Notes under the pieces: model-generated | What the model was told of the DNA's origin: nothing | What the model saw: only the letters and a program-made list of their open reading frames with translations | Database searches by the model: none | Part shown: piece by piece, positions 1-40,913 of the stretch | Numbering within the stretch: the first letter of the stretch is position 1 | How the letters are laid out: each line of letters starts with the position of its first letter | DNA from: a bacterium | Lineage (GTDB): Bacteria; Zhuqueibacterota; QNDG01; JAFGCO01 | Direction: 5' to 3' | DNA: 64,000 nt | Assembly (NCBI GenBank): GCA_016932575.1 | Contig: JAFGCO010000011.1 | Coordinates: forward strand, 10,851-74,850 | Made by a program: the position numbers and the translations under genes

Positions 1-1391
1 GGAATCATGAAAAAGAGGGCGACAAAAACAAAAAATACGGATCCGATCAGGAGCAAAAACGGTTTTTCTTCAAGCGTCTGAACAATCGCCTTGAACATAT
101 TCAGTTTTTTCTGCCTGGTGTGCGCGTAACGCTCCCTGCATAAAATAGCGGGTGTAATCGCCGTAATCAGCATAAACGCGGCAACAATCGCTCCCACATA
201 AAATGCACCCGTGACTTCATTGCCCCCCCAGAGCTGATCCATCAGTGTAATCTTATATAAGGACGCAATCGCGATGCCTACGATGAAAGAGGGCAGAACC
301 CTGAAAATCATCAATTGGGTGCGCTCGTTATAATCCACGGCCAGCTCAAGACCCAATCCGCTGTAAGGCACCACCCACATGGTAAATGCCATATAAAACA
401 GCGAGACCATAATAATCAGATAGAGTGGAGTCCAGATGTTCACCAGGGAAAAATCAGCCGTATATCTGCCGATATCTGAAATCCTGACTTCATCAATCAG
501 TCCTGAATAACGGGTGGAAGTATCATCGTTGATTGACGTTCCGATTTCGGTGGAAGAGTCGGTTCCATCCCATGGCACATCCATCACAATATCTTTAACA
601 GCCTTCTGCTCGCCGTTCAGATACAGACCCATCTGAGTGCCGTTGTAAACGGCTGCGATATGATTCCATACACCCGTTGCCAGGGTCGTGTCAATCCGCA
701 GTTCCTGGGTTTCTCCTGCGCTGTCTTTAATTGAAAAGACGATCCGATTTCGTTCAGGCACACGAATCGATACCTCGCTATTCTGTCCGCGATGATTGAA
801 CAAAGCACTGCCCGTAACAAATGAATCACTTTTTGCATACATTTCGACTGTAAATGTATTTTGAAGCCCCGAGAACGGGCTTCTGATCCCGACACCTCCG
901 TCCTCTTCTGTGAATTTAAGCGCCTTTTTGAATTTTCCTGCGTTTTCCCAGATAAAATTTTTCATGGAACCGTGATTTTGAAATGGACCGGAATCCACGG
1001 CAATATGTTTATGTTCAGCCTCCCCGTTAAAATGCCAGAGGCCGGCCGTGTTCGCATCGACTGAGAATCCTTTTTCAAGCTGTGTTGTATACCAGACCCC
1101 CATAAATGTCAGCGACATTAAAATCGCCCCGAGGAATATCCAGGGCCGCCTTCTTCCCCATCTTGATTTTGTATTGTCCGTAATATTTCCCATCAGGGGA
1201 TCGGTAACCGCATCGATGATCCGTGAAGCGGACAACGCCAATCCGATGTAAAAAGGACTGATCCCCATACCGACGCCAAATATCGGATAAGACAGTGTCA
1301 AAAATGCATTGTTGGCCAAATTTTCGGCAAAACCGCCAATCCCCCAAAATGCCTTCTGCACAATCGACAGAGATTCTTTTTCCTTCGCCAC
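1..1391 (-). CDS. MFS transporter, GPH (MelB-like) family, 5' portion; the gene runs off the window start. A LamG/concanavalin-A-like jelly-roll domain is inserted between TM3 and TM4.
   Basis: Manual translation of the reverse complement gives an uninterrupted frame to position 1. It starts at GTG (~1389-1391) with SD AAGGAGA 6 nt upstream and an in-frame TAA just upstream. TM1-3 carry the GPH signature ...DAVTDPLMGNITDNTKSRWGRRRPW. A soluble domain follows (LWHFNGEAEHKHIAVDSGPFQNHGSMKNF...TGVWNHIAAVYNGTQMGLYLNGEQ). Then come TM4/5 with PYSGLGLELAVDYNERTQL. The track lacks it because there is no stop in the window. Minus-strand ORFs 617..895 and 1075..1347 are off-frame shadows. Confidence 0.6.
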   Translation of the reverse strand, partial: MAKEKESLSIVQKAFWGIGGFAENLANNAFLTLSYPIFGVGMGISPFYIGLALSASRIIDAVTDPLMGNITDNTKSRWGRRRPWIFLGAILMSLTFMGVWYTTQLEKGFSVDANTAGLWHFNGEAEHKHIAVDSGPFQNHGSMKNFIWENAGKFKKALKFTEEDGGVGIRSPFSGLQNTFTVEMYAKSDSFVTGSALFNHRGQNSEVSIRVPERNRIVFSIKDSAGETQELRIDTTLATGVWNHIAAVYNGTQMGLYLNGEQKAVKDIVMDVPWDGTDSSTEIGTSINDDTSTRYSGLIDEVRISDIGRYTADFSLVNIWTPLYLIIMVSLFYMAFTMWVVPYSGLGLELAVDYNERTQLMIFRVLPSFIVGIAIASLYKITLMDQLWGGNEVTGAFYVGAIVAAFMLITAITPAILCRERYAHTRQKKLNMFKAIVQTLEEKPFLLLIGSVFFVFVALFFMI

Positions 1392-1653
1392 AGGTTGTCT
1401 CCTTTTGTCTTATGATCCATTATCATGTAAAGAGGTTTTTTAATGTACGTCCCAACCATATAAAAGTCAAGATAATTTAAGGAGTTAAGAAAAGAGATTC
1501 TATCAGAAAGCACGGCGCTGCCAGAGGCGCTTCCTGGATTCAGGTCAAGGTCTGATTAATTGTGATATAGCTAAAAGAATGTGAAAAGGAGCCTCGGAGA
1601 ACTGGTAACACGTAAAGAAGAGTCAGAAATTATGAATGATGAATGAAAAGAAT

Positions 1654-2088: not shown

Positions 2089-5000
2089 TTGAAAGGCATA
2101 TTGAGGAAATGCACAGTGAAGCTCCCCCCTGAAAGCATCGGGGAAACTTCATCTGTAAGGAATCAGTTTATTCTATTGTCTCGAAAGCACCCGCTGAGCA
2201 GATTCAAGCGGGCTTTTATTGTTATTATTCCCGTTTTGTTCCTTTTTTCTGATTGCGGCAATAAACAATCATTTCACGACAGAACCATTTGCATTGATCA
2301 AAAGCGCTTCTTCTCAGTTAGATTCGATCCGTCGTATTACTATGATGTGGATTTAAAGGTTCCTGCGCTTTGTGAAGAACTCGTTTCGAACTGGAAAGAG
2401 AGCGGGATCAATACGGTTTATGTGAAGGTCTATGATCCGCTGTACGGCGCGGTATACAAGACCCGATACATACATAATATCCAGACGGATTACGGCAGAC
2501 TGAATCTGCTCAAGTCCCTGATCAAGACCGGCCATAATCATGGGATTCAAATATTTGCGTGGATTCCGGCCTTTCAGCATAAACAGGTATGGGAGGCACA
2601 TCCGGAGTGGCGCAGCAAACAGGCGGATGAAACCGACTACCAGCCGGATGAAAACAGCTGTCATCTCTGCGTCAGGAATCCGGAATACGGAAAATGGTGG
2701 ATCGGATTTGTGGAAGATCTGCTGAAGCGGTACAGGGATCTGGATGGTGTGGATATCGCCGAACCCGTTGTCAGCTGGAAACCGGATAAGGTCTGCTATT
2801 GCCGCCATTGCCGGGAGGCTCAGAACCGAATGAGTGACAGCTATGGAACGACAAAGAAGGATGCTTTTGAACTGACCCGTTCAGCGGCACTCACATCACT
2901 CATTGAAGAGACATGCCGGCTGGTTCATTCACACGGCAAGCCGGTTTCTGTGACATCTCTCACAACTGCCTATAGCGAGGGCTCCCTTTATTCCGCCCGG
3001 GAACAACAGTCCGCTACGGGATTCGATCTGGAGGCGGTTCTTGAGCTTGAGCATAAACCCGATATCATCAATATGGAAATCCTCTGGCAGGAATGGGCCA
3101 ATTTCTGGAATGACACCACCCTGTTTCAACCGGAATGGACCAAGCAGGCTGTACGGGAAGTGATAAAACAAGTGGATAATCGCAGCAAACTGGTGATTCA
3201 CGTCGAAATGACACCTCTGGGGGATATTCAGGTTCCGGATAAAATGTTCGTCAGATCGATATACGCGGCCCTTGACGGAGGGGCTCAAGGCATTGATTTC
3301 TACGATTCGCATCAGGCGGACAACCGCGGACTTTGGCCGCGGATTAAACAGGCCCTCGGTTATACCCCGTTGAAAAAGATTCTGGTCTATCATGATCCTG
3401 ATTATTTGCAGGATGCCAGACAGCTGGAAGTGCTGCTCCGGCATTTTCGAACAGATACGGAATTGAGGCCCCTGGAAAACAGTTTTTCTCCATCCGATTT
3501 GTCGGGTACGGATTGCATTTTTTATGTGGGTAACGAATACCGTGCATCTCTGCCTGAACGGTTTATACAGGCTGCTGCCGGATTTGACGGAACCGTTTGC
3601 TGGATCAATGAAAATATTCACGCATTGAAAGATGCCGGACTGTCCGGGCTGGGTTTTCATTATCAGGGCTATGATGATACGACCCGGTATGAGATTGTTT
3701 ATCAGGGAACGTCTTTTAATAAAGATAATAATTCGCTTCATCTGATTGATGTGGATCGCCCGGATCGCTGCCATATCATGGCTTCCGCCAGATCCGGTGA
3801 AAAGGAAGTGCCATACATCGTTCGAAGCGGACTCTTTTGGTATGTGGCCGATCTGCCTTCAAACTATATGACAGAGGGCGGAAGGCATATTGTTTTTGCG
3901 GATCTGCTTCATGATATTCTGCGGGAAGACCATATCGAAAAGCATTTGGCGCTGGTCCGGATTGAAGATGTCAATCCCACGTCTCATCCGGAATATCTCA
4001 GATCTATTGCCGATTACTTACACTCTCAGGACGTTCCTTTTTCGGTGGGCCTGACTCCATTCTATCTCGATCCTTCTGAAAACACAGCCATTTCCATTTC
4101 TGATCGTCCTGATTTGACCGATGCGCTGCATTATATGGTCTCGCGGGGAGGTACTGTCATTCTGCATGGATGTACCCACCAGTATCGTGGGCAATCGACT
4201 ATTGATCATGAATTCTGGGACGGAATGAACAATCGGCCCCTTTTTGAAGATTCTGAAGTTTATGTGGAGGAACGGTTAGAGAAAGCGATCAACGAGTGTT
4301 TTAAAAATGATATCTATCCTCTGGTCTGGGAGACACCTCACTATGCCGCTTCTCAGATTGACTATCGGGCAATTAACCGGTTCTTCAGCACCTGTTATGA
4401 AAGAAGACAAACCGTGGATGTTCTGGGATCTGATCAATTGTTGCCCTTTTACATTCCCGCGCGGGCGGGTAAAGCAACGATGATTCCTGAAAACCTGGGA
4501 TATGTTCCTATAGACGATCCCTCTCCTGAAACCATTGTGCTCAACGCACAAAAAAACCTGAGGATCCGGGATGGATTCGCCAGCTTCTTTTTTCATCCTT
4601 TCGTTCCGCTGGAGTCTCTGAAACAAATCATACCCGGTATCCAGGATTTGGGATATACGTTTGCCAGTATCCGATCGATCGACAATCAGGTGAAGGCCGC
4701 TTCCCAAACCGTCATCAGCGGTCAGAACGATCTGAAAATTGATGTCAATGACCAGTATTTCCGGGAATTCTATTTGACTCAAAAAGGCAAAAAGAAACAT
4801 CAGCGAATCAGTGAAAAAAAACTGTCCGAACCCATGGAAAAATCGGTGGTTTGTCCCCAGGACTGGCTTTATGTGGCCAGCGCGCTGGATGTCAGGGATA
4901 AAAAATTTCCGGCAACCCTGCTGGCATCGTTTGACAAGGCACCCTTCGGTCTGGGACATTTCCTTCAGCCGCAGCCTCTGAAGGCGGCCAGTACTACCAT

Positions 5001-7209
5001 TGCCCCTCTTTTCATTGTCGATTCATCTGCCACAGGAAAACCGGCCAGTAGCCAATCCAGTTTAATCAATGCCTTCGAGGCTGCAGGCATCGATTATCAA
5101 ACCGTTCCGGTCCGCGAATTTCTGGACATTCCGAATCATGTCGATATGATCATTGTCCCGTTTGCTGCCGGCCGGAATCTTTCAGAACAACAGATTCTGT
5201 TTATTTTAAGGGCCCTTTCACGCGGCTTGAGAATCATTATGGAAAAAGAGACGCCTTTAAGTGAACGGATCGGGATTATGGGCATCGGCGATTCGCTCAC
5301 TGTGAGTATGGTCCGGGATGAATACTATCCGCAAGTGGATATTCAATGGAAAGAAGCGGATACGTATCGCCGTTTTGATGTGCCCATCGATTATGTCACC
5401 TATTATTCAGAAAAAAACACCGGCAATCCTCTGGTGATAGGCGGTGAATTCGGTGAGGGCATGTATCTTTACTTTGCCACGCTGTTTGATCCCACCACAT
5501 CAAAAGGGTATGGCCGATATCCGTATTACTGTGATCTTCTGCAGCGGCAATTTGACTCATGGCCTCTCGTAAAAAGAGAGTCTGCGGAGATATATTTTGA
5601 GCCGGGTGACCGGGAGGATGTAAGCATAGAAGAGCTGGTTAATCTGTGGAAAAAGAGTGGTTTCAGAACCATCTATGTTGCCGGCTGGCACAGGTATCCG
5701 GACTGGACCTATGATTATAACCAACTCATTGAGTTGGCGCATCAATACGCCATGGAGGTTTATCTCTGGTTTGAACTGCCCCATGTGAACGTCGCTTTTT
5801 GGAACGAACATCCCGAATGGCGGGAGAAAACAGCCACAGGTGAGGACGCGATCATTGAATGGCGGCATTTTATGGCGCTTAACAATCCAGCCTGTCTGAA
5901 TGCGGTCTGCTCGGAATTGTCCTATTTAATTCAAAAATATGACTGGGACGGGATAAATTTCGCCGAGCTCTACTTCAGTTCTCCCCTCGGGCCTGATCGT
6001 CCCGATCTTTTTACGCCCATGAACGCATCGATAAGAAATAGATTTTCCCTGTTATATGGATTTGATCCTGTACAGCTTTTTGATCCTGCTTCATCCTTCT
6101 ATTGGCGAAAAAACAGGGCAAAATGGGAACAGTTCCAGCGATTTCGGCAGGACTTGGTCATTGAACTCCATGATGTTATACTTTCCTTTTTACATCGGGA
6201 AATAGCCAAAAAGCAGAGCGATATGGAAATTGTGGTGACCGCTCTGGACAATATCCATGCCAGACAAACGGGGCTGGGGACAGCAATGGATACCCGGCGT
6301 TTGATTGAACTGGGCGAAAGGCTGCCCTTTACCCTTCAAATTGAAGATCCCTTCGAGTTATGGCATTTGGGACCTTCCCGATATGACCGCCTTTCCCGAA
6401 CATACAGAACATGGCTGCAGGAACCGGAGAAACTTATTTTTGATATCAATGTGGTTCCCTATCGTTCGTTTAAACTGACCATGGCCCCGACAAGACAGCC
6501 GACGGGTCTTGAATTATATCATTTTCTGAAAAGTGCCTCTCAGGATCAAAACCGTGTCGCACTTTACTCCGAGTCAAGTATTTATATGGTTGACCTGCCC
6601 TGGATCTCTTATGCTCTCGGACAATATACCGAAGAGACGTTGTCGCCGTATCGCTGGGAAATTCATACAGAAAACACAGTCACTGTGGACATGGATCCGG
6701 ATAGTCATAAAGACCTGATGGTGAACGGATCATTTTGGCCGGCGTACTTTAATGGTCGCTTGATGCTTCCCCCGGGAGATCATGAGATCGAGTCCGTTTC
6801 AGGGATCAAGGGATTTGCCAAATCCTTAAATACAACAACCCGCCTTGTGGATATCAGCGGAGAGCTAAAATCCTGCCGTCTGAATCATCAGGGGATCGAC
6901 GTGACTTATGAATCTCCGGTCCGAAATTATATCATTGTCAATGAAAAACCAAAGAAAATTATGGTGGACAATACATATTATGAGAGCTGGGTGCGAAAGG
7001 GGAAAAAAGGGTATTCTCTCACCGTTCCATCCGGAATGCATACAATAAAAATTATCACACAGAGTTCGGGCAGCCGATCTTTGAGAAACTTCAGCATTGT
7101 TTCTTCAGTCACCCTTGTTCTGATAAGCGGACTGGCAGGTTTCATTTTACTTGGGCTCTATATCACCGGCGCCTTGAGAAGACACCGTCGCAACAAGCAT
7201 TCATCCTAA
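2089..7209 (+). CDS. Large (1706 aa) membrane-anchored polysaccharide-modifying protein. Domains in order: N-terminal TM/lipoprotein-like signal, glycoside-hydrolase-like TIM barrel (GHL10/DUF187-like), DUF2334 deacetylase-like domain, unknown domain, second GHL-like barrel, beta-sandwich, C-terminal TM.
   Basis: There is no in-frame ATG near the N-terminus. The start is TTG at 2089 (weak SD) or GTG at 2116 (GAGGA 8 nt upstream). Hydrophobic segment KRAFIVIIPVLFLFSDCG. GHL-like motifs GINTVYVKVYD, GHNHGIQIFAWIPAF, WEAHPEW, CYCRHC. DUF2334-like segment DVPFSVGLTPFYLDPSEN...TVILHGCTHQY. Second barrel GFRTIYVAGWHRYPDW...HPEWREK. C-terminal TM VTLVLISGLAGFILLGLYITGALRRHRRNK. Domain assignments are from memory of the families, not a search. 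Confidence 0.6.
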   Translation: MKGILRKCTVKLPPESIGETSSVRNQFILLSRKHPLSRFKRAFIVIIPVLFLFSDCGNKQSFHDRTICIDQKRFFSVRFDPSYYYDVDLKVPALCEELVSNWKESGINTVYVKVYDPLYGAVYKTRYIHNIQTDYGRLNLLKSLIKTGHNHGIQIFAWIPAFQHKQVWEAHPEWRSKQADETDYQPDENSCHLCVRNPEYGKWWIGFVEDLLKRYRDLDGVDIAEPVVSWKPDKVCYCRHCREAQNRMSDSYGTTKKDAFELTRSAALTSLIEETCRLVHSHGKPVSVTSLTTAYSEGSLYSAREQQSATGFDLEAVLELEHKPDIINMEILWQEWANFWNDTTLFQPEWTKQAVREVIKQVDNRSKLVIHVEMTPLGDIQVPDKMFVRSIYAALDGGAQGIDFYDSHQADNRGLWPRIKQALGYTPLKKILVYHDPDYLQDARQLEVLLRHFRTDTELRPLENSFSPSDLSGTDCIFYVGNEYRASLPERFIQAAAGFDGTVCWINENIHALKDAGLSGLGFHYQGYDDTTRYEIVYQGTSFNKDNNSLHLIDVDRPDRCHIMASARSGEKEVPYIVRSGLFWYVADLPSNYMTEGGRHIVFADLLHDILREDHIEKHLALVRIEDVNPTSHPEYLRSIADYLHSQDVPFSVGLTPFYLDPSENTAISISDRPDLTDALHYMVSRGGTVILHGCTHQYRGQSTIDHEFWDGMNNRPLFEDSEVYVEERLEKAINECFKNDIYPLVWETPHYAASQIDYRAINRFFSTCYERRQTVDVLGSDQLLPFYIPARAGKATMIPENLGYVPIDDPSPETIVLNAQKNLRIRDGFASFFFHPFVPLESLKQIIPGIQDLGYTFASIRSIDNQVKAASQTVISGQNDLKIDVNDQYFREFYLTQKGKKKHQRISEKKLSEPMEKSVVCPQDWLYVASALDVRDKKFPATLLASFDKAPFGLGHFLQPQPLKAASTTIAPLFIVDSSATGKPASSQSSLINAFEAAGIDYQTVPVREFLDIPNHVDMIIVPFAAGRNLSEQQILFILRALSRGLRIIMEKETPLSERIGIMGIGDSLTVSMVRDEYYPQVDIQWKEADTYRRFDVPIDYVTYYSEKNTGNPLVIGGEFGEGMYLYFATLFDPTTSKGYGRYPYYCDLLQRQFDSWPLVKRESAEIYFEPGDREDVSIEELVNLWKKSGFRTIYVAGWHRYPDWTYDYNQLIELAHQYAMEVYLWFELPHVNVAFWNEHPEWREKTATGEDAIIEWRHFMALNNPACLNAVCSELSYLIQKYDWDGINFAELYFSSPLGPDRPDLFTPMNASIRNRFSLLYGFDPVQLFDPASSFYWRKNRAKWEQFQRFRQDLVIELHDVILSFLHREIAKKQSDMEIVVTALDNIHARQTGLGTAMDTRRLIELGERLPFTLQIEDPFELWHLGPSRYDRLSRTYRTWLQEPEKLIFDINVVPYRSFKLTMAPTRQPTGLELYHFLKSASQDQNRVALYSESSIYMVDLPWISYALGQYTEETLSPYRWEIHTENTVTVDMDPDSHKDLMVNGSFWPAYFNGRLMLPPGDHEIESVSGIKGFAKSLNTTTRLVDISGELKSCRLNHQGIDVTYESPVRNYIIVNEKPKKIMVDNTYYESWVRKGKKGYSLTVPSGMHTIKIITQSSGSRSLRNFSIVSSVTLVLISGLAGFILLGLYITGALRRHRRNKHSS

Positions 7210-7228
7210 TTCTTAAGGAATCGCTCCC

Positions 7229-8512
7229 ATGCCTTTCGAATCCATTGTGATCAACATTTTATTCCTGTTTTCTGTCTCTGTCATCTGGGTGATGATTCTC
7301 TATCAGCTCGTCCTGACCTTTTACGGGCACAGACACCGCCGGGCCATGGAAAAACGACTGGCAGAAGCCGACTGGCCGGATGCGTCATTGCCTCCGGTAT
7401 CCATATTGGTTCCTGCGAGGAACGAAGAAGTTGTGATTGCCCGGACTCTGGATAAAATACTGGCACTGGATTATCCGGCTGAAAAAATGGAAGTGATTGT
7501 GATCAACGACGGTTCAACCGACAAGACCCAGGCCATCCTTGAACAGTACAAGAAAAAAGACAGCCGGGTAAAGCCCCTTCAGTTACCACCGGCAGAGACC
7601 GGCAGAGGGAAAGCCCGTGCCCTGAATGCGGGCTTCCGGATAACCCGGTATGATTATATCGCCGTTTATGATGCAGACAACAATCCGGAAGCTTCCTCTT
7701 TAAAAACACTGGTTCGGGAACTGATGGAAGACACCGCGGTGGGTGCAGTGATCGGTAAATTCAGAACCCTGAATTGGAAGAGGAATATTTTAACACGATT
7801 CATTAATATCGAGACCTTGAGTTTTCAGTGGATTCTTCAGGCAGGCCGGTACAGGGCATTCCAGGTTTCAATATTGCCGGGCACCAATTTTGTGATTCGC
7901 AAAGCAGTTGTTACCGCCTGTGGAGGATGGGATGAAGCAGCGATAACGGAAGATGCGGAACTGAGCGTACGCATTTATCAGATGGGCTGGAAAATTAAAT
8001 TCGTGCCCCATGCGGTCACATGGGAACAGGAACCGGAGAAGTGGGAAGTGTGGATCCGGCAACGGACACGCTGGGTCAGAGGGAATAATTACGTCATACA
8101 AAAATTTATTAAACCGGCATTGGGCCTGAAGAATCGGTTTCTCTTTACGGAATTTCTGTATCTCTTTATTCTCTACTATTTACTGCTGGGCGCCATTGTG
8201 ACCTCCCATCTTCTCTTTATTCTCTGCGGACTCGGAATCCTCAATGTCGATGTGCCCGGGCCCTATATGGCCGTGTGGATACTGGCCTTTATTTTGTATC
8301 TCATGGAAGTGGTGCTTGCTTTGTCTTACGAAGACGAGGATAAACCGCTGAATATCCTCATTACTGCGGTCATGTACTTCACCTATTGTCAGATGTGGAT
8401 CTATGTGGTATTTCGGGGATTTTATCTGGACCTTTTTAAAAAACGGGTCGGAATCTGGGATAAAACAGAACGTCATAATCAGGATGATCTCCTGACTCAG
8501 GATGGAGATTAG
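7229..8512 (+). CDS. Family-2 glycosyltransferase, processive synthase type (PgaC/IcaA/NodC-like), integral membrane
   Basis: SD TAAGGAA 8 nt upstream. N-terminal TM. GT2 core VSILVPARNEEVVIARTLDKILALDYP...VIVINDGSTD. DxD motif YDADN. QxxRW motif QRTRWVRG. C-terminal TM helices. It starts 19 nt after the upstream stop. Confidence 0.8.
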   Translation: MPFESIVINILFLFSVSVIWVMILYQLVLTFYGHRHRRAMEKRLAEADWPDASLPPVSILVPARNEEVVIARTLDKILALDYPAEKMEVIVINDGSTDKTQAILEQYKKKDSRVKPLQLPPAETGRGKARALNAGFRITRYDYIAVYDADNNPEASSLKTLVRELMEDTAVGAVIGKFRTLNWKRNILTRFINIETLSFQWILQAGRYRAFQVSILPGTNFVIRKAVVTACGGWDEAAITEDAELSVRIYQMGWKIKFVPHAVTWEQEPEKWEVWIRQRTRWVRGNNYVIQKFIKPALGLKNRFLFTEFLYLFILYYLLLGAIVTSHLLFILCGLGILNVDVPGPYMAVWILAFILYLMEVVLALSYEDEDKPLNILITAVMYFTYCQMWIYVVFRGFYLDLFKKRVGIWDKTERHNQDDLLTQDGD

Positions 8513-8514
8513 CC

Positions 8515-9387
8515 TTGCATGGTAAATTCTGGCATATTGCGGCAGGAATGTTTCTGGCTGTGAGCAGCTTAATGGGCAGTGAGCCGGATTCATCGGGGAT
8601 TGAATCAAATCCCGATGAAGGAGGATCCGCTGAAATTCATTGGAGCATTTGGGGAGAATTTTATGATGAGTCCATGATTTTTGAGAGTGAAGAAGACAAT
8701 GTGTTCTCCAATTCGCATATCAGGCAGGGGCTGAAAATCAGACATTTGCCGGTCATCAATCTGTTCCAGACGTATATCCTGCTGCGGTACGGACGGGATC
8801 TTCACAGGGATTTTTGGAACAATAAAACCGAGGTCGGCCTGGGGCTCAGGACCCGGTTCTTTAAAAAAATCTTTTTCGCGCCATATGCTGAATATATCTG
8901 CGGATTCTACAACAAGATCCCGGAGGGTCGTCCGCAACCCCAAGCCCGACAGTATACTGATTTAAGAGGAGGATTCATATTCTGGTATGGATGGGACACA
9001 TGGTATTCCCCTGCCTCGCTGATCACGTTTCCCAGACATTTTATCGGTGAGGTATACAGCGAATTGAACTATTTCAGAAAGGACCGTGACAATATCATAT
9101 CGTATACCCACATGAAGGCAGGCATTCGCGCAGTCCGCATTTGGAAATGCGCTTTTGTCGGTTACGGAGCCATGTATATCATGAAGGACAGAAATCGGGA
9201 TTTTTGGAACAATGTCGCTGAAATAGGGCCCGGTTTCTGGATAAAGCCCCACCCTGACGTGGATTTAAAATTTTTTGTGGAATGGCTTCGGGGCTATTAT
9301 TATGGGATTGAGGGCAGGGATGATAATCCCAATCCTCAAATATTCAGTGATCGAAGAATCGGCATTCTGTTATGGATTGGATGGTAA
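8515..9387 (+). CDS. Putative outer-membrane beta-barrel protein (EPS export porin candidate), internally duplicated
   Basis: TTG start 2 nt after the GT2 stop. Signal-like N-terminus MHGKFWHIAAGMFLAVSSLMG. Aromatic-rich alternating pattern. Two copies of the RDFWNN motif ~120 aa apart. C-terminus ...LLWIGW ends in an aromatic residue. Confidence 0.45.
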   Translation: MHGKFWHIAAGMFLAVSSLMGSEPDSSGIESNPDEGGSAEIHWSIWGEFYDESMIFESEEDNVFSNSHIRQGLKIRHLPVINLFQTYILLRYGRDLHRDFWNNKTEVGLGLRTRFFKKIFFAPYAEYICGFYNKIPEGRPQPQARQYTDLRGGFIFWYGWDTWYSPASLITFPRHFIGEVYSELNYFRKDRDNIISYTHMKAGIRAVRIWKCAFVGYGAMYIMKDRNRDFWNNVAEIGPGFWIKPHPDVDLKFFVEWLRGYYYGIEGRDDNPNPQIFSDRRIGILLWIGW

Positions 9388-9433
9388 TATTTTTAACCGA
9401 TCAATCGACTTATTTTGGTAGGAGCAATTTATT

Positions 9434-11290
9434 ATGAAAAAGAGTCTCATGGGGATTGTATTTTATGTCCTGTGCTTTTGGAGCCCGGGAAATTCCCTTG
9501 TTTTTTCCGAAGATATTGCTGCCCTGATCTGGAAGCTGTCTGCCGATCTGACTGTGACATCTATTGCGCCGACCAGTGATATTGACGGGGACAGTATACC
9601 GGACGTCTTTGTGGGATCGGCCGATCATCTGGTCTATTGCCTTTCCGGGAGCGTTATTCGTCAGGGCGAGATACTCTGGTCCTGGAATTTCGGTGCGCCT
9701 GTATGGACAGTGGCCTCTATTCCGGATATTAACAGAGACGGGGCGGATGACTGCCTGGTTGGGTGTGCTGACAATACCATATACTGCATGTCCGGAAATC
9801 CGGTTCAGGGCCTTTCGGAAATTTTGTGGTCGTACGGTGTGGACGGCGATATTTTTACGATAGCGGTTCTGAACGATCTGAATGATGATGGAATCGATGA
9901 CTGTGTGATGGGGACCAATGATGATCAGGTTTGCTGTCTTGACGGGGCATGGGGTCAGGTGCTCTGGTCCTACCGGGATCCGGCAGTTGGCGCCATCAAG
10001 TCGGTGAGTGCCATCTCCGATGTCAACAATGACGGACTGGATGACTGCCTGGCAGGCGGCGAGAATGACAAGGTGGTCTGTCTGTCCGGGGGCAGTACCG
10101 GAAATGGAGATCTGATCTGGTATTGCAATACCCAGAGCACCGTTCTTTCTGTCAACACTATTGAGGATGTGAATGAGGATAACAAGCCGGATTGCCTGGC
10201 AGGCGGAGAGGATAATTTTGTGTATTGTATATCCGGTAGCGGCTCGGGAAAAAATGATCCCCTCTGGCGCTGTGATATGGGCTCAACTGTAAAATCCGTT
10301 TCTTCTATTGCTGATGTCAATCAGGATGGCATATGGGATTGTCTGGCGGGCAGTGAGAGTTGGGACGATAATATTTATTGTATTTCCGGAGTCACTGGTC
10401 ACGTTCTGTGGTCAAATAAACTCCCCAGCAGTGTTCTCAGTGTGTGCTCCATTGATGATGTCAATGACAGCGGGTTTCATGATTGCATTGCAGGGTGTGA
10501 AAATGACCGGATCTATTGTCTTGAAGGAGGACAGGGAACAGCAATCTGGTCTTACGAGACAGGCGGTGCAGTGAACTGCGTGGTGACAGTGGCCGACCTG
10601 AACGGAAACCTGATTGATGACGTGTTAGGCGGGTCCACGGACAGCTATGTTTACGCTTTAGACGGGGGGGATATTTTAATCGAGGTTGTCAGTCCGCCGA
10701 TTGTTCCCACAGGACCATCCGGGGAAGTATCAGAAGGCAAAACCGGCAACCCAATGGTGCTCGTCACAGGCGGATCGGCCAGCAGTTTTCATCATCCGGT
10801 GGAATACCGGTTTGACTGGGGAGATGAAACGGTTTCGGTTTGGGGAGATTCGAGCCGGAGTCATATCTGGGAAGAGGCTGGCTCATATGAGGTCAGAGCG
10901 CAGGCCAGGTGTGCTCTTCATCCAACGGTACTCAGCGAGTGGTCTGATAATGTAATCGTGAAAATTGTTGAAAAGACACTTGTGAACCGCCATCCAGCAG
11001 AAGATGTGCCCATTCATTTCTGCCTTTATCAGAATTATCCGAATCCCTTTAATTTAATGACCACGATAGAATATCAGGTTCCAAAAGCCTGTCAGGTGAC
11101 CATTAATGTATACAGTATCCATAGTCACCTGATCGCATGCATTGTTGATGGATTTTTCGAGGCCGGGAATTATCGAATTAACTGGGAGGGGAGAACCTCT
11201 TCCGGCACCATCGCATCATCGGGCTGCTATATTTACTGCATGAAAGCCGGAGAATATATCGCGGTCAAAGACATGCTTCTGCTGAAATGA
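9434..11290 (+). CDS. Secreted FG-GAP/integrin-like beta-propeller protein (about 8 blades with Ca-binding DxNxDGxxD loops) carrying a T9SS C-terminal sorting domain
   Basis: Signal peptide. Eight repeats of the form DINRDGADDCLVGCADNTIYCMSG. C-terminal ...YQNYPNPFNLMTTIEYQVP...VYSIHSHLIACIVDGFFEAGNYRINWEG...LLLK matches the Por_Secre_tail / T9SS type-A sorting domain. Confidence 0.7.
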   Translation: MKKSLMGIVFYVLCFWSPGNSLVFSEDIAALIWKLSADLTVTSIAPTSDIDGDSIPDVFVGSADHLVYCLSGSVIRQGEILWSWNFGAPVWTVASIPDINRDGADDCLVGCADNTIYCMSGNPVQGLSEILWSYGVDGDIFTIAVLNDLNDDGIDDCVMGTNDDQVCCLDGAWGQVLWSYRDPAVGAIKSVSAISDVNNDGLDDCLAGGENDKVVCLSGGSTGNGDLIWYCNTQSTVLSVNTIEDVNEDNKPDCLAGGEDNFVYCISGSGSGKNDPLWRCDMGSTVKSVSSIADVNQDGIWDCLAGSESWDDNIYCISGVTGHVLWSNKLPSSVLSVCSIDDVNDSGFHDCIAGCENDRIYCLEGGQGTAIWSYETGGAVNCVVTVADLNGNLIDDVLGGSTDSYVYALDGGDILIEVVSPPIVPTGPSGEVSEGKTGNPMVLVTGGSASSFHHPVEYRFDWGDETVSVWGDSSRSHIWEEAGSYEVRAQARCALHPTVLSEWSDNVIVKIVEKTLVNRHPAEDVPIHFCLYQNYPNPFNLMTTIEYQVPKACQVTINVYSIHSHLIACIVDGFFEAGNYRINWEGRTSSGTIASSGCYIYCMKAGEYIAVKDMLLLK

Positions 11291-11326
11291 TTGAAGAGAA
11301 AAACATTTTGGAAGGCTTTGGGAATA

Positions 11327-12445
11327 ATGAGCGGCAATAACCTCTTCAAAATCATGGTCGTCATGGGAACACGGCCGGAGGCCATTAAACTGGCGCCGGT
11401 TGTGCTTGAACTGAAAAAGCAGTCCGATATTCAGCCGGTTATCGTGGCCACTGCACAGCATCGGGAGATGCTGGATCAGGTGCTGGCCCATTTCCTGATT
11501 GCGCCTGATATGGATCTTGATCTCATGATTCCCGACCAGACCCTGTTTCATCTTACAGGAGCGGCCATTCATGGATTCGAAGCAGTTTTCCAAAAAATCA
11601 GGCCCGATTTGATTCTGGTACAGGGAGATACAACCACATCTTTCATCGGCGCACTGGCCGGATTTTATAAAAAAATCAGGGTCGGCCATGTGGAGGCAGG
11701 ACTCAGAACCGGCAACAAGTATTCTCCCTTTCCTGAAGAGATCAATCGAAAATTGGTTTCTGTACTTGCTGATTACCATTTTGCCCCCACGCCGGGCAAC
11801 CGAAAAAACCTGATCGCCGAAGGAGCCGCGCCCGAAAACATTATTGTCACCGGAAATACGGTGATCGATGCATTGCACCTGACCGTGGACGACAATTTCA
11901 CCTCAGAGATGCTCTCCTCACGGGATTATGACCGTTTTATCCTGATCACCGCCCACAGAAGAGAAAATTTCGGCAAACCCCTGGAAAACATCTGCGAGGC
12001 TGTCCGGCAAATGGCCATGCATCATTCAGACTGGATCTTTATGTATCCGGTTCATCTCAACAAAAATGTTCAGGAACCTGTCCGTCGTATACTCAGCGGT
12101 ATGCACAATGTCCATTTGGCCGATCCCATGGATTATTACACCTTTGCCAATTATATGGCCGCTTCCGATCTCATTCTGACAGATTCCGGAGGCATACAGG
12201 AGGAAGCGCCCAGTCTTGCAAAACCGGTTTTGGTTTTAAGAGATGAAACCGAAAGGCCAGAAGCAGTCGAAGCCGGTACAGTGAAAATCATTGGAACGAA
12301 CCTAAAGACGATTATTTCAGAGACGGAATATCTTCTGAAGAACAAAGAGGCATATGAACAGATGACCAGGGCTCATAATCCATACGGCGACGGTAAAGCA
12401 TCGGAAAGAATCGTGACGTTTATTCGAAATACAATCATGTCATAG
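11327..12445 (+). CDS. wecB: UDP-N-acetylglucosamine 2-epimerase (non-hydrolysing)
   Basis: KIMVVMGTRPEAIKLAPVV, GDTTTSF and HVEAGLRT are classical WecB/MnaA motifs. The track start 11291 is TTG. ATG 11327 (MSGNN...) has GGAAGG upstream. Confidence 0.85.
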   Translation: MSGNNLFKIMVVMGTRPEAIKLAPVVLELKKQSDIQPVIVATAQHREMLDQVLAHFLIAPDMDLDLMIPDQTLFHLTGAAIHGFEAVFQKIRPDLILVQGDTTTSFIGALAGFYKKIRVGHVEAGLRTGNKYSPFPEEINRKLVSVLADYHFAPTPGNRKNLIAEGAAPENIIVTGNTVIDALHLTVDDNFTSEMLSSRDYDRFILITAHRRENFGKPLENICEAVRQMAMHHSDWIFMYPVHLNKNVQEPVRRILSGMHNVHLADPMDYYTFANYMAASDLILTDSGGIQEEAPSLAKPVLVLRDETERPEAVEAGTVKIIGTNLKTIISETEYLLKNKEAYEQMTRAHNPYGDGKASERIVTFIRNTIMS

Positions 12446-12492: not shown

Positions 12493-14421
12493 TTATATTT
12501 TTGTTTTCATGGCGGTTCGGATTTTTTGCAGTAATGCGACCATCGTATAGGGCTTTTCCAAAAGGGGATACGCCTTCTTTTGAATGTCAGACCATTTGGA
12601 GCTGTATTCAGGATAGCCGCTGGTCAATAAAATGTGAATATCCGGCTTTTTAGCCAATAATGTTTCAACAAGTTCAACCCCGCTTTCACCGGACAATTCC
12701 ACATCACTGAAAACCAGATCAAAACTACCATTTTCTTTATCGAAAACTTCCATGGCCTCTTTGACATTGGCGGCCGCAAAGGTGATAAAATTGTTTTTGA
12801 TTAAAGCTTTTTCCATAAAGGTTCTGACTTTTTTATCATCTTCAACAAAAAGAATACGTTCACCGTTTCCCTTAAGAGACTGGATGGGCAGTTCTTTATT
12901 TGTTTCAATATCCGGATGTTTCGGAACTGCCTCAAAATAGATATTGAAGGTGGTTCCCGTTGCCGGTTTGCTTTTCACTTCAATCCATCCGTTGTGTTCC
13001 TTCACAATACCAAATATCACGGCCAATCCCAGACCTGTCCCCTTATCATGCTTTTTGGTGGTGAAAAAAGGCTCAAAAATACGTTCCAGGGTTTTTTTAT
13101 GCATGCCAACACCCGTGTCCGTTATTGAGAGGCAGACAAAATGACCGGGTCTGGCTTCGGTACTTAGACTGCTTTGCTTCTCAGAGATGGTCACATGCTT
13201 GGTTTCAATGGTCAGCGTGCCGCCTTCGGGCATTGCGTCCCGGGCATTCATGGACATATTCAGGAGAATTTGTTCCAGAGTGCCTTTATCTGCTTTGACG
13301 GAGCACAGATCCTGAAGCAGGGATTCTTTGATCTTAATATGTTCTCCAATCAATCGGCGAATCATATTGGTCATATTTTTAATCAGGACGTTTAAATCGA
13401 GAACCTCAAATGACATGGGCTTGTTGCAACTGAAGACCAACAGTTTGCGTGTTAAATCGGCAGCCTGATCCGCAGAATCCTGAATTTGCTGAATGAATTG
13501 ATAAAGGTTGGACTGCTGTGCCAGGTCCGGAAGGATCAGTTCTGTTGTCCCCCGAATGGCAGTTAAAATATTGTTGAAATCGTGTGCGACACCTCCTGCC
13601 AGGGCTCCTATAGCATCCATCTTGCAAGCCTGTCTGAGCTGCTCTTCCATTTGTTTTTTTTCTGTGATGTTCCGAAAAACCAATACGACACCATTGAGTT
13701 TGCCGCGATCATCCCTGATGGGTGCTGCATTGTCATCAATCGGTATTTTTTTGCCGTTTTTCGCGATGAGCAATGTATTGTTGGTCAGGGAAACGGGCTT
13801 CCCTGTATTCAGCACCGTTCCGACCGGGTCGTTCACCCACTCTGTTTCGTTATCGTTGGTAATATGAAATACCATATTTATGTTTTTACCTATGCCTTCT
13901 TTCTGTGACCATCCGGTCAGTTTTTCTGCACCGGGATTCATAGAAACAATGGATCCTTTCCTGTCTGTTGTGATTACCGCATCGCCGATACAATTTAAGG
14001 TGGTGGAAAGCCATTCTTCATTTGCTTTGAGCTTCTTTTCCATCTCATGCTTATAGAGAGAGATTTCAATGGATGAACTTACCTCTCTCTCATCCAGAGG
14101 CTTCAGTATGTACCCGTAAGGTTCAGCTCGTTTTGCTCTTGTTAAAGTCTGTTTGTCTGAATAGGCTGTTAAAAAAACAACCGGGATATCATAATGCTCA
14201 TGGATATATTCAGCAGCATCGAGCCCTCCCATTTCATCACCCAGCATGATATCCATTAATACCAGATCAGGCCGGTTGGATTGAGTTGATTGAATGGCAG
14301 CTTCTTTTGACCTGACTGAATCGGTGACATGATAACCCAGGTCCTCCAGTCTTTCCTGGATCTCCAGGGCAATAATGTGCTCATCTTCAACAACCAGTAT
14401 TTTTTTCTTATCGGTATTCAT
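12493..14421 (-). CDS. Hybrid sensor histidine kinase/response regulator (REC-PAS-HisKA-HATPase-REC)
   Basis: N-terminal receiver ILVVEDEHIIALEI...DLVLMDIML. PAS. H-box HDFNNILTAIRG. HATPase GTGLGLA. C-terminal receiver ERILFVEDDKKVR...DLVFSDVEL. SD AAGAGG. Confidence 0.85.
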   Translation of the reverse strand: MNTDKKKILVVEDEHIIALEIQERLEDLGYHVTDSVRSKEAAIQSTQSNRPDLVLMDIMLGDEMGGLDAAEYIHEHYDIPVVFLTAYSDKQTLTRAKRAEPYGYILKPLDEREVSSSIEISLYKHEMEKKLKANEEWLSTTLNCIGDAVITTDRKGSIVSMNPGAEKLTGWSQKEGIGKNINMVFHITNDNETEWVNDPVGTVLNTGKPVSLTNNTLLIAKNGKKIPIDDNAAPIRDDRGKLNGVVLVFRNITEKKQMEEQLRQACKMDAIGALAGGVAHDFNNILTAIRGTTELILPDLAQQSNLYQFIQQIQDSADQAADLTRKLLVFSCNKPMSFEVLDLNVLIKNMTNMIRRLIGEHIKIKESLLQDLCSVKADKGTLEQILLNMSMNARDAMPEGGTLTIETKHVTISEKQSSLSTEARPGHFVCLSITDTGVGMHKKTLERIFEPFFTTKKHDKGTGLGLAVIFGIVKEHNGWIEVKSKPATGTTFNIYFEAVPKHPDIETNKELPIQSLKGNGERILFVEDDKKVRTFMEKALIKNNFITFAAANVKEAMEVFDKENGSFDLVFSDVELSGESGVELVETLLAKKPDIHILLTSGYPEYSSKWSDIQKKAYPLLEKPYTMVALLQKIRTAMKTKI

Positions 14422-14443: not shown

Positions 14444-15865
14444 TCATATTTCGAAAATAATTTTATATTCTGTTCCATTGTTTCGGTTGATTTCCATCAT
14501 GCCATCCAGCTGTTTAATTAAAGTATTGACAAGCCGCAATCCCAGGGTGTTCACATTTTTCATATCAATTTCATCAGGCATTCCAATGCCATTGTCCTTT
14601 ACATCAATAATGGCCCGGTCGCTGTCGATAGTATCTATTTTAATCTTGATCTCCCCTTTGCGGGCATTCGGGAAGGCATGTTTCAGGGAGTTTGATATCA
14701 GTTCATTGATGATCAATCCACAGGGAATGGCCTTGTCAATATTGATTTCGAAATTACCGATTTCCTTATGAATAGAGATATTTAATGAACTAACACGATA
14801 TGACTTGATTAAATAGGATGTCAGACTGCTTATATATTTGGAAAAATCAATATGAACAATATCCTCTGACTGGTACAGTTTTTCATGAATTAATGCCATC
14901 GCTTTAATTCGGTTTTGGCTTTCTTTGAACATTTCTAAAGCTTCATTATTTTTGATTTTCTTGGACTGGAGAAAAAGCAGACTGGAAATAACCTGCAGGT
15001 TGTTTTTAACACGATGGTGAATTTCTTTTAGAAGAATTTCCTTTTCTTCCAGGGAAGCCTTTATTTTTTTCTCTGCACTTTTACGCTGAATCAGCTCTTC
15101 GTGCAATTGCCTTGCCCGGTTCTCAAGTTCATGGCTGGCATTTTGAAGCGCAATATTTTGATTCTGAATTTGTGTCAGCATTTCATTAAACTGCTCAGTG
15201 AAAAAACCCAATTCATCTTCACTTGATTTTTGTGCACGGACTGAATAATCCTGATTCAGGGAAATTTTTTGGGCAACCTTTGCAAGGTGTAAGATGGGTT
15301 CAGAGACAACGCGCTGTAACCGGGTTGTCATCAGGAAACTGACTAAAATCGCCACGAGCAATACCAAAATCACAATAATAAAATTTCGCCTGAGCCTGGC
15401 TTTAATTTCTTCCAGACTTGATTGGATATATACCTTTCCTATTTTTTCCTGATCCAGCATAATATCCCTGTATATAACAAAGTGGTCTTTGTAAAAATAA
15501 GCGCCGTTCTCCTTTGGCATGGGCGGCAAAGACTGAATATCCACACCTTCAATTTTGTACTTTGCAAAAATTTTATCGTTCTTATCATAGATGGCGGCAA
15601 AAAGAATATATTTTTCTGCTTTTAATAAAATGGACAGGGTTTCCTTGGCATCATCTTCATTATCAAAAATTAGTGCTGCAGTGCAGTGATTTCCAATAAT
15701 CTCCGCGAGTGTATCCATCTTATGTTTAATGACTTCCCGATAATTGAGCTGATCTGAAGTGATTAAGGCAGCACAAGCAATAAGAAGCGCAACACTGCTG
15801 CTGAACATTGTGATTGCTGTCAGCTTCTGTTTGATAAAAAGCTTATGGAAAAGCTGCTTTTTCAT
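14444..15865 (-). CDS. Sensor histidine kinase, HisKA_2 family, with a periplasmic sensor domain flanked by two TM helices
   Basis: TM1, a ~125-aa periplasmic domain, TM2, a HAMP-like segment and a coiled coil. HisKA_2 H-box [17 protein letters not shown]. HATPase_c follows. It lies 22 nt upstream of the hybrid kinase. Confidence 0.8.
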
Positions 15866-15871
15866 TTCATT

Positions 15872-16444
15872 CTATTCAAGTGAAGGTTCTGGAATATCTG
15901 CCATTTTCAACAGTTTTGTACTCATCTTTAAACCGGACTGTTTAACAGCTTCGCTGTTGATTTCAAAGCGTATCTTTTTTTTCTTGATAATAAAATTAAT
16001 CATTCCGCCATCTTTGGAAAAATTGGTTTCATCACCCACTGTAAGAATACTGTTATTTTTAATTTTACTGAATATTTGAGACCGCCGGTCTCTGTTGTCC
16101 ACACCAATGAACAGGATATGGCAAGACGACAAATCTTCCAGATTCTGATAGCGCCTGATTCTGAACTCTCGATTTTTTATTTGTTTCCCCTCAATGGTTT
16201 TTTCCAGATCAATGCCATAAGGATCACTGCCGATAATACCAATCACAAACGGTGAATCCGGATTATTGAATGATTCTTCGGGCCAATCCACAAATCTTGC
16301 AAAATTATACAGATATTTGGCCTTGATCTGATACTCTGTCGGAATGACAGTAAATCCCATTTGTGAATAACTATTTGATCCCCCAAGAATTATGATAAAT
16401 ACGGTAAAACATCGGATTGAAATGATGTTAATTTTAGGTAACAT
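15872..16444 (-). CDS. YfiR-like periplasmic protein (DUF4154)
   Basis: Signal peptide from the ATG at 16444 (MLPKINIISIRCFTVFIIILGG); the track start 16477 is TTG. It carries the DUF4154 hallmark YLYNFARFVDWP. It is the first gene of a minus-strand operon with the two kinases. Confidence 0.65.
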   Translation of the reverse strand: MLPKINIISIRCFTVFIIILGGSNSYSQMGFTVIPTEYQIKAKYLYNFARFVDWPEESFNNPDSPFVIGIIGSDPYGIDLEKTIEGKQIKNREFRIRRYQNLEDLSSCHILFIGVDNRDRRSQIFSKIKNNSILTVGDETNFSKDGGMINFIIKKKKIRFEINSEAVKQSGLKMSTKLLKMADIPEPSLE

Positions 16445-16771
16445 ATGTTCTATTTTTGAAATATTTTTCAATTCCAATCAACCCATAAAACATTAATAAA
16501 CAAGATATTATTTCTAAAAATCAATAATAAATCACAATGTTTTATGAAAATCTCTTTTTCATTATGGAATCATGATCCTTTTTATCTCAATTTCATATCC
16601 AGGGGGATTGTTCAGCTGCAGTCGCAGAATGAAGGGATGATAAATCCAGATTTTCCAATAAGGTTACACAGTAAACAAATTTAATCAATGGTGAAGGAGA
16701 AGTTTTATGCTCATCCTTTTCCCCGGTTCCGATATCCTGTTTTTATTAAAACCTGTATTTTTTATGAAATG

Positions 16772-26056: not shown

Positions 26057-26355
26057 GGCATTCTCCTGCAATAATAACAGTTTTTTAAGATATGAATATT
26101 TTTTACCGGTTTCAAGCAAAAGGTAACAACCGGTTGGCCAATCCTGTAAATTTTATTTGGAATAATCACTAATGCCTGATTTAAAATATACTGGTTTTAA
26201 AAAAATAAATTCTTATCTTTTATAAAAAGGCGGCTTTGTTGATTATATGGTTTTCAAAACAAATAAAAGGCGATGTTTTTAAAGCAATAAGAGCAAACCC
26301 GGATAAGCTTTCGCAATGCCAATAAATTTACATCGATTCAAGAGGAGGTTCATAA

Positions 26356-33076: not shown

Positions 33077-33712
33077 ATGGACAATCAAGATCAAGTTAAG
33101 TATATCTGGCATCAGTGGGTCTGTTTTAAATTGGGCAATGAAGAGTTTGGTGTGGATATACTCAAAGTCAGAGAAATTGTACGCATCCAATCGATTACCC
33201 ATGTTCCACAGACACCTGATACAGTTGCCGGAGTGATCAATCTGCGAGGCAATGTCATTCCGGTAATCGATTTGCCCAAAAAGCTGGGTCTGCCTGAATC
33301 CAACCGGGACGACAAAGCACGAATCATTGTTTTTTTCGTCGGTGATAAACTGATCGGAATGATTGTAGATCATGTCGAACGTGTACTGCGTATCAGAAAA
33401 GAGCAGATTGAATCGCCTCCGGATATTGGTGCAGGCAGAATTCAGGATTATATTGAAGGCATGGGAAAAGTTGAGAAAGACCTGATTGTCTTACTGAATA
33501 TCGACAAAATATTAACCGAAGAAGATATTATTCAAATCGAAGATTTGAAAAAAATGAAACAGGCAACCGAACAAATAAAGGCATCGAAAATACCGCCTGA
33601 AAAAACTGTCAGAAAACCAGAATCCACATCGAAAACCGCAACGAAAAAAAAGACAAAATTGAATCTCCCGGTTGCTAAAAAAAAGAATCAGAAAAAATTA
33701 TCGAAAAAATAA
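33077..33712 (+). CDS. cheW: CheW-like coupling protein with a lysine-rich C-terminal tail
   Basis: GVDILKVREIVRIQSITHVPQTPDTVAGVINLRGNVIPVIDL. Confidence 0.8.
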   Translation: MDNQDQVKYIWHQWVCFKLGNEEFGVDILKVREIVRIQSITHVPQTPDTVAGVINLRGNVIPVIDLPKKLGLPESNRDDKARIIVFFVGDKLIGMIVDHVERVLRIRKEQIESPPDIGAGRIQDYIEGMGKVEKDLIVLLNIDKILTEEDIIQIEDLKKMKQATEQIKASKIPPEKTVRKPESTSKTATKKKTKLNLPVAKKKNQKKLSKK

Positions 33713-33731
33713 AAAAAGGGGAGAATCTGGC

Positions 33732-36144: not shown

Positions 36145-36169
36145 TAACGGCTCAATCCTGGAGGCTATG

Positions 36170-40047: not shown

Positions 40048-40062
40048 ACAGGCCTGAGGGAA

Positions 40063-40899: not shown

Positions 40900-40913
40900 G
40901 TAAATCGATCACC

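Follow-up and report, generated by a model that had tools for sequence, protein, structure and literature searches.

A LamG domain in the periplasmic TM3-TM4 loop of a GPH-family transporter from a Zhuqueibacterota bacterium

What a lectin-like domain might do in the middle of a membrane transporter is the question raised by the left end of a 64,000-nucleotide stretch of bacterial DNA (GTDB phylum Zhuqueibacterota; GenBank assembly GCA_016932575.1, contig JAFGCO010000011.1, positions 10,851 to 74,850), which is referred to here as the window. The minus strand of positions 1-1391 carries the 5' part of a gene that a first-pass annotation, made from the sequence alone, had described as a MelB-type symporter of the major facilitator superfamily (MFS) with a LamG jelly roll in the loop between transmembrane helices (TM) 3 and 4. 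In the present study, we regard it as practically certain that this gene encodes a 12-helix symporter of the GPH family with a complete LamG domain in the periplasmic TM3-TM4 loop.

Translation of the reverse complement of positions 1-1391 gave 463 codons without a single stop, from a GTG at 1391-1389 to the window edge, and neither an internal stop nor a frameshift was present, in agreement with the frame that had been read by hand from a GTG at about 1391 behind the Shine-Dalgarno sequence AAGGAGA. An earlier start is impossible because an in-frame TAA lies at 1412-1410, and the GenBank record begins at the same GTG. Promoter-like sites numbered 8 in the region versus 3.3 +/- 2.0 in shuffled sequences, which is weak evidence. 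The two minus-strand open reading frames (ORFs) that had been listed at 617..895 and 1075..1347 are, as suspected at first reading, shadows that lie 1 and 2 nucleotides (nt) out of the true frame. Regarding the claim that the gene is unannotated, it is absent from the ORF track due to the cut made by the window, but a public annotation exists: the protein, designated P0001 here, is 100% identical to GenBank MBN2102874.1, a 674-amino-acid (aa) 'MFS transporter [bacterium]' on a 172-kb contig of a metagenome-assembled genome (MAG). The remaining 211 codons lie to the left of position 1 and were recovered, as part of the whole 674-aa frame, from an independent Logan assembly (L001, 4109-6133), which agrees with the window at every one of the 1391 nt.

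Both domain families proposed for the protein were detected above their Pfam cut-offs. MFS_2 (PF13347, which is also precomputed on full-length P0001) matched the window fragment at 8.6e-32 and 110.6 bits (cut-off 27) in two separate stretches, the first of which covers aa 17-106, and the match to Laminin_G_3 (PF13385; 5.5e-22 to 1.1e-22, 79-81 bits, cut-off 27.6) fell between them. When the full protein was modelled with AlphaFold2 from an alignment of 75 sequences, the model contained 12 long helices, arranged as two lobes of six, with a predicted local distance difference test score (pLDDT) of ~88-98, and placed the insert between TM3 and TM4 (Table 1). The short periplasmic loops of this model hold no lysine or arginine and the longer cytoplasmic segments hold 3-7; taken together with the N-in topology that is universal among MFS proteins, this distribution locates the insert on the periplasmic side, where the first-pass annotation had put it. 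In an alignment with insert-less relatives of ~464 aa, the insert takes the place of a TM3-TM4 loop with a median of 10 residues, which in the relative P0005 reads ...WFTPRTGSELIP..., and the linkers that hold the beta-sandwich are short (~15 and ~12 residues). The insert had been estimated at ~170 aa, which was too small; it measures ~209 aa, or 220 aa from helix to helix.

Judged by its sequence, the core is a divergent branch of the GPH family (TC 2.A.2) in the broad sense. It shares with the MelB symporters of Salmonella and E. coli the 12-TM MFS fold, the GRRRPW-type motif, and the PY..L....ERT signature in TM4/5, and all of the motifs quoted at first reading were found in the translation (GRRRPW at aa 79-84, VPYSGLGLEL...NERT at aa 341-358, LWHFNGEAEHKHIAVDSGPFQNHG, and VWNHIAAVYNGTQMGLYLNGEQKA). 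MelB differs in that its loop 3-4 is short and it lacks an extramembrane domain. The TIGR00792 'gph' model covers the core end to end, from 4 to 436 of its 437 positions, once the insert is removed. The term 'MelB-type' holds at the family level but not below it: the MelB equivalog NF007749 scored 123.5 bits, or 141.7 bits without the insert, versus a cut-off of 456, and the protein is not a MelB orthologue. Among solved structures, MFSD2A, a Na+-dependent lysophosphatidylcholine symporter, was the best match in both sequence (4e-18, versus 1.5e-15 for MelB) and fold (Foldseek, 2.7e-13 versus 1.3e-10; target-normalized template-modelling score (TMt), 0.77-0.86). It also possesses a TDP motif in TM2 and VPYS.L in TM4; unlike the present protein, MFSD2A is eukaryotic, transports a lipid, lacks a LamG insert, and is 12-15% identical, whereas the bacterial subfamily is found in a genomic context rich in carbohydrate-active enzymes (CAZymes).

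The cation-site pattern D..[NT]D in TM2 plus T in TM4 is present, with D60, T63, and D64 of TM2 in the segment SRIIDAVTDP and T337 of TM4 in FTMWVVPYS. The TM2 segment aligns with GRAWDAITDP of MFSD2A, and this match is consistent with cation coupling. We take TM2 D-x-x-[NT]-D and the TM4 threonine to correspond to the MelB cation site on an alignment by eye in which the TM2 pattern was compared only with that of MFSD2A, and the MelB sugar-site residues D124 and W128 presumably correspond to V340 and S344, also as aligned by eye.

The insert was modelled alone because the full-protein model was only partly confident in this region. With 63 LamG relatives, gathered with a three-sequence profile, AlphaFold2 returned a fold of 15 strands and zero helices (pLDDT 91.8; predicted template-modelling score, 0.90), and Foldseek found 472 matches to it in the PDB at E<=1e-3, which bears out the jelly roll expected at first reading. 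In an exhaustive profile search, with 40,003 matches, the entire insert (profile positions 3-212) corresponded to one LamG unit. Together, the Pfam match, the profile search, and the model identify it as a LamG/ConA-like jelly roll that is complete. The top structural match was domain 4 of AbnA, a GH43 arabinanase of Geobacillus stearothermophilus (PDB 5hon/5ho0), which has the same LamG_3-type beta-sandwich (template-modelling scores 0.74-0.77; in the top match 0.76 by query (TMq) and 0.77 by target, with 21% identity), followed by the lectin-like Hc-N domains of clostridial neurotoxins. AbnA domain 4 is a proven carbohydrate-binding module that binds arabinopentaose with a Kd of 8-11 uM, using a concave aromatic cleft (PMC9110388). 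By analogy, a role for the insert as a carbohydrate-binding module is plausible; AbnA domain 4 differs in being part of a secreted enzyme, not of a transporter, and its arabinan ligand need not be shared.

This architecture is very rare. Among 508 significant homologues obtained in a search of 5.8 billion clusters, the LamG insert was present only in P0001 and in P0002, a 666-aa protein from a Joint Genome Institute (JGI) metagenome that is 59% identical to P0001; this count reflects rarity because a close insert-bearing relative would outrank insert-less ones in such a search. A scan of metagenomes with insert peptides returned 14 LamG loci (24-39% identity), none of which has MFS sequence in its flanks by tblastn, in a collection that is incomplete for this purpose in that it missed the contig of P0002 itself, and a genome scan returned insert-less relatives only (L002 and L003). 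PF13347 was found on none of the 120 LamG relatives listed in the profile search, and none of the best 150 LamG profile matches had a length of 600-700 aa; the profile search was swamped by giant multi-LamG proteins, the scores of which are summed over repeats, and was unable to reveal MFS fusions, but it brought out the LamG protein P0144. A word-index search with the insert alone gave zero matches, also missed the parent protein, and has no bearing on rarity. Searches of the full-text literature yielded no description of a GPH/LamG architecture, which agrees with the impression recorded in the first-pass annotation; one apparent match that combined LamG with MFS proved spurious, as it had been caused by the term 'LamGFP' in a paper on SLC5A transporters of Drosophila.

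P0001 and P0002 were exclusive sisters in 93 of 100 neighbour-joining bootstraps (449 core columns), and therefore one insertion event in their common ancestor accounts for both. Their cores are 78% identical and ~15-25% more diverged from outgroups than those of insert-less sisters; their inserts are 45% identical. The similarity of the insert to the first LamG domain of P0144 is almost as high as that between the two transporter inserts (42% identity over 208 aa with 3 gap positions) and includes the boundary motifs F[ST]xDxxTxGLWHF ... IDEVRISDxxRY..F. P0144 (542 aa) combines a signal peptide and two LamG domains with a Por_Secre_tail, the C-terminal sorting domain of the type IX secretion system (T9SS), and a T9SS sorting tail was also found on many further relatives of the insert. 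Proteins of this class differ from the transporters in that they are free-standing and secreted or surface-exposed. Sequence similarity suggests that the donor was likely a secreted T9SS-sorted LamG protein of this type, and that its domain was grafted as a whole module.

The same loop has been used by others in the subfamily. In the 75-sequence alignment, the cytoplasmic loops are invariant in length, and only the periplasmic loops 3-4 and 7-8 vary. Loop 7-8 has a median of 4 residues and a maximum of 32, and loop 3-4, with a median of 10 residues and outliers of 135, 207, and 219-220, is the only one to take domain-sized inserts. P0105 (L005, 10001-12052) carries a beta-rich insert of 207 aa between TM3 and TM4, and P0048 (L006, 10001-11785) and P0061 carry one of 135 aa, none of which has a Pfam match. 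These inserts were considered as divergent LamG domains, which was ruled out by hhalign probabilities of 0.4% for P0105 and 0.1% for P0048 together with the lack of a Pfam match. P0105 and P0048/P0061 also branch separately in the tree. Counting the LamG domain, loop 3-4 has therefore received at least three modules that are unrelated to one another, which makes it an insertion hotspot. A distant GPH paralogue in L005 (5834-7471; 545 aa, 23% identical), located between two GH94 genes, has an insert of ~95 aa in a different periplasmic loop, TM5-TM6.

The insertion appears to have left the transport core intact. In 73 other members of the subfamily, 117 core columns show at least 90% conservation; P0001 retains 115 of them, and both of the deviations, P103T and R397F, are common to P0002. 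P103T is at the insertion junction, where TPR became TTQ/TTK, and R397F is at the periplasmic end of TM6 (window ~201-203, minus strand). All three proteins with ~210-aa inserts have lost R397, with F in its place in P0001 and P0002 and H in P0105, which represents two independent insertion events, and the residue is kept in the proteins with 135-aa inserts (P0048). Residue 397 may be a site of contact or compensation, and the conservation pattern fits an intact transport core with a local adaptation of its periplasmic face to a bulky neighbour.

Regarding the substrate, the most informative evidence came from the gene neighbourhoods of relatives (Table 1). In 4 of 8 such loci (L002, L005, L025, and L026), a GH94 gene is directly beside that of the transporter, and further direct neighbours are GH3 in L008 and GH88 in L024. 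GH94 enzymes are cytoplasmic phosphorylases of beta-gluco-oligosaccharides, and their linkage to the transporter indicates that the subfamily probably imports beta-linked oligosaccharides; on genomic context, cellobiose, cellodextrins, or related compounds are the most likely. Genes for SASA-family carbohydrate esterases were also found near the transporter in 3 of the 8 loci (L002, L005, and L006/L007), which hints at acetylated oligosaccharides as substrates. L026 originates from the same metagenome as P0002 (JGI sample 3300056874) and encodes the insert-less P0014; insert-bearing and insert-less forms thus coexist in one community.

We give about an even chance to an interpretation in which P0001 imports oligosaccharides by cation coupling and bears a tethered carbohydrate-binding module in the periplasm. 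An inner-membrane GPH symporter would import beta-linked oligosaccharides of the cellobiose/cellodextrin/gluco-manno type, which would then undergo phosphorolysis or hydrolysis in the cytoplasm. The ancestor of P0001 and P0002 would have gained a complete LamG_3 module in its short TM3-TM4 loop while the 12-helix core stayed intact. Going by the general architecture of MFS proteins, the LamG sandwich would lie at the N-lobe on its periplasmic side, close to where the transport cavity opens. There it may capture periplasmic oligosaccharides, concentrate them locally, or select among them before they enter the transporter, in line with the capture or selectivity suggested at first reading. It is possible, with distinctly less confidence, that the LamG domain is a built-in substrate-binding domain that feeds the MFS cavity and that recurrent insertion into loop 3-4 is a general route by which such 'antennae' are acquired.

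Folded soluble domains in extracytoplasmic loops of MFS proteins have precedents in eukaryotes, in PepT1/PepT2 (TM9-10), SV2 (TM7-8), and SLC22 transporters (TM1-2), which differ from the present case in loop, fold, and kingdom, and to our knowledge none of these domains is found in the GPH family or in loop 3-4. The closest functional analogy is with GlnPQ and OpuA, ABC importers in which a tethered substrate-binding domain raises the local substrate concentration. The analogy is functional only: GlnPQ and OpuA are primary active transporters with a domain of the substrate-binding-protein fold at a terminus, whereas in P0001 a lectin fold is located within a loop of a secondary transporter.

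Several points weigh against the interpretation of P0001 as an importer with a tethered carbohydrate-binding module. In its own genome, neither GH94 nor GH3 is adjacent to the transporter gene; the nearest catabolic CAZyme in the window, a GH3 gene, is ~22 kb away (Table 1). The TIGR00792 score of the core, 172.8 bits at full length and 189.2 bits without the insert, is below the curated cut-off of 231.35. The core is about equally close to the lysolipid symporter MFSD2A and to MelB, and because of this the assignment of a sugar substrate depends on the genomic context of relatives. Concerning the insert, the Hc-N domains of neurotoxins and the domains of PAPP-A are nearly as good structural matches as the carbohydrate-binding module, and LamG_3 domains serve diverse functions, as lectins, as protein-protein modules, and as spacers in toxins and enzymes. 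Furthermore, P0001 and P0002 each form a singleton cluster, and the design has not been widely successful.

The leading alternative, which we consider doubtful, is that the domain is a protein-protein docking module that tethers an envelope partner, such as a glycoside hydrolase, a TonB-dependent receptor, or another envelope protein, and thereby couples product release to uptake. LamG/LNS-type folds often bind proteins, and the near-equal matches to the PAPP-A LG and Hc-N domains are in keeping with this. Relatives of the insert also occur in huge multi-LamG adhesin-like proteins, and the replacement of R397 in all carriers of large inserts suggests new surface contacts. On the other hand, the best structural match is a sugar-binding module, and no conserved candidate partner was found beside the genes for P0001 and P0002. 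The contig of P0002 shows unrelated neighbours; at 3 kb it is too short for context, and one neighbour looks like a dGTPase-type HD protein by eye, without a family search.

It is improbable, and more so than docking, that the insert does little or nothing and is tolerated as a passenger, a mobile and abundant LamG module that landed in a permissive loop by illegitimate recombination and has persisted there. That three unrelated modules are found in loop 3-4, the only loop taking large inserts, would be expected of a permissive site, and the extreme rarity of the architecture, with its two singleton clusters, and the far faster evolution of the insert than of the core (45% versus 78% identity) point in the same direction. 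A passenger would nevertheless be expected to decay or to be deleted, as a useless domain of 209 aa carries the cost of Sec-dependent translocation; instead, an intact and confidently foldable domain has been kept in two lineages, the cores of which are 22% different, with its LamG core residues preserved, 62 invariant positions common to both transporter inserts and P0144, and no disruption of the frame. The GC content at third codon positions (GC3) is lower in the insert than in the core (0.47 versus 0.59 in P0001; 0.49 versus 0.64 in P0002, L004 367-2367), which would also suit a passenger. A recent foreign origin of the insert was considered on this basis and rejected, because the same contrast is present in the 59%-identical P0002 and the GC3 of the insert equals the genome average. 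It is the core that stands above all 22 other window genes examined (mean 0.457, standard deviation 0.049), and codon usage in the conserved membrane core is the likelier, if tentative, reason for the contrast.

A sensory role, in which a glycan bound to the LamG domain modulates alternating access or signals the presence of substrate instead of feeding the pore, appears quite unlikely. The short linkers connect the peripheral TM3 with the cavity-lining TM4, such that, from MFS architecture, movement of the domain upon ligand binding could bias the conformation of the transporter, and genes for two-component systems and chemotaxis are abundant in the window. The gene, however, is linked to neither a signalling domain nor a signalling partner, and the core keeps all hallmarks of a transport family.

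Less likely still is a functional link with the exopolysaccharide-type cluster at 2089-12445 (+), from which the transporter gene diverges. The protein would then be an exporter or flippase, or a recycling importer, and its LamG domain would bind the polymer made there. The gene adjoins this cluster, which encodes a 1706-aa GHL6/GHL10 and DUF2334 protein, a GT2 glycosyltransferase, a beta-propeller protein, and a UDP-GlcNAc 2-epimerase, and the core is as similar to the lipid-handling MFSD2A as to MelB. The two are divergent and not co-oriented, however, and their association breaks down elsewhere: the genes found beside P0002 and eight relatives are different ones, mostly catabolic GH94, GH3, and GH130 genes. 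Finally, an artefact of assembly or gene calling, such as a chimeric contig or a frameshift fusion, is next to impossible even for a sequence known from metagenome assemblies only, since the same gene is found in the NCBI MAG contig and the independent Logan assembly, P0002 has the same architecture in a different JGI sample, which together exclude an assembly chimera, and transporter sequence continues in frame on either side of the insert.

The remainder of the window is unusually rich in signalling genes. A YfiR/HmsC-like (DUF4154) gene at 15872-16477 (-) is followed on the same strand by sensor kinase genes at 14444-15865 and 12493-14421, and a second one at 36086-36694 (+) is located between a TonB-dependent receptor gene (33672-35873) and a chemotaxis operon (36711-45192) with two genes for methyl-accepting chemotaxis proteins, CheR, CheA, and CheB. 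FlgD_ig-type C-terminal domains are present on two secreted-type proteins, the beta-propeller protein at 9434-11290 and an amidohydrolase at 21422-23401; taken together with the Por_Secre_tail on relatives of the insert, these ends hint at an FCB-group-like host with T9SS-type sorting. No tRNA or Rfam element was found in the window.

Table 1. Positions of features in the window and gene arrangement at the loci of relatives
Feature	Position	Strand	Remark
GPH-family MFS symporter gene with LamG insert, 5' 1389 nt, codons 1-463 of 674	1..1391	-	remainder beyond left window edge
Shine-Dalgarno-like AAGGAGA	1398..1404	-	6 nt upstream of GTG; read from sequence
Sigma-70-like promoter match TTGACT-17-TACATT	1442..1470	-	~50 nt upstream of start; consensus match only, 9/12 positions
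TM1 (aa 19-41), TM2 (aa 46-73), loop 2-3, TM3 (aa 82-99)	1095..1337	-	AlphaFold2, pLDDT 88-97
GRRRPW motif, cytoplasmic loop 2-3	1140-1157	-	sequence
Complete LamG beta-sandwich domain, aa ~108-316, ~209 aa	444..1070	-	alignment, loop lengths, Pfam, AlphaFold2
Segment under the Laminin_G_3 hidden Markov model, aa 177-306	474..863	-	Pfam
TM4 (aa 320-350), TM5 (aa 354-382), TM6 (aa 392-417), central cytoplasmic loop, start of TM7 from aa 443	1..434	-	AlphaFold2, pLDDT 90-98
1706-aa protein, GHL6/GHL10 glycosidase-like and DUF2334 deacetylase-like	in cluster 2089-12445	+	
GT2 glycosyltransferase	7229-8512	+	
290-aa ORF without Pfam match	8515-9387	+	
FG-GAP/PKD beta-propeller protein, FlgD_ig tail	9434-11290	+	
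UDP-GlcNAc 2-epimerase	11291-12445	+	
GH3 beta-glucosidase-type gene, Fn3-like domain	23945-26119	-	
L002 (Ignavibacteriota), insert-less orthologue			then GH94, SSF (Na+:solute) transporter, GH130, second GH94; upstream GH9, GH5, GH2
L025 (Sedimentisphaerales), P0008			then two GH94 and GH27
L026, P0014			array GH5-CBM11 / GH130 / GPH / GH94 / GH130 / GH94
L005, P0105			between GH94 genes, GH9 near
L008, P0006			then GH3-PA14
L024, P0005			GH88 precedes
L006 (P0048), L027 (P0013)			no directly adjacent CAZyme; L006: SASA esterase two genes downstream

Both parts of this protein belong to known families, and the novelty lies in the very rare insertion of a LamG domain into a GPH transporter; the system as such is of a familiar kind. 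The usual picture of a bacterial MFS transporter is that of a bare 12-helix bundle drawing its substrate from the bulk periplasm, and assistance by a binding domain is considered to be a hallmark of the ABC, TRAP, and TTT systems. The combination of a GPH transporter with a lectin-type module at the mouth of its cavity, together with the repeated entry of different modules into this one loop in oligosaccharide-utilisation loci, would represent a natural experiment on whether local capture can tune affinity or selectivity, and loop 3-4 is a permissive site for the engineering of domains into GPH transporters. Even if the domain is functionless, the case documents the grafting of a secreted module into a polytopic membrane protein without damage to its core.

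The finding would gain in significance if the LamG domain truly serves the transporter as its own substrate-binding domain and the recurrent use of loop 3-4 is a general strategy. A transporter that captures cello- or gluco-manno-oligosaccharides in this manner would bring binding-protein-dependent uptake, in an MFS version, into a single polypeptide, and we know of no description of such uptake for the MFS. Polysaccharide degraders would then equip their GPH importers by means of three unrelated modules in loop 3-4, with a fourth in loop 5-6 of a paralogue.

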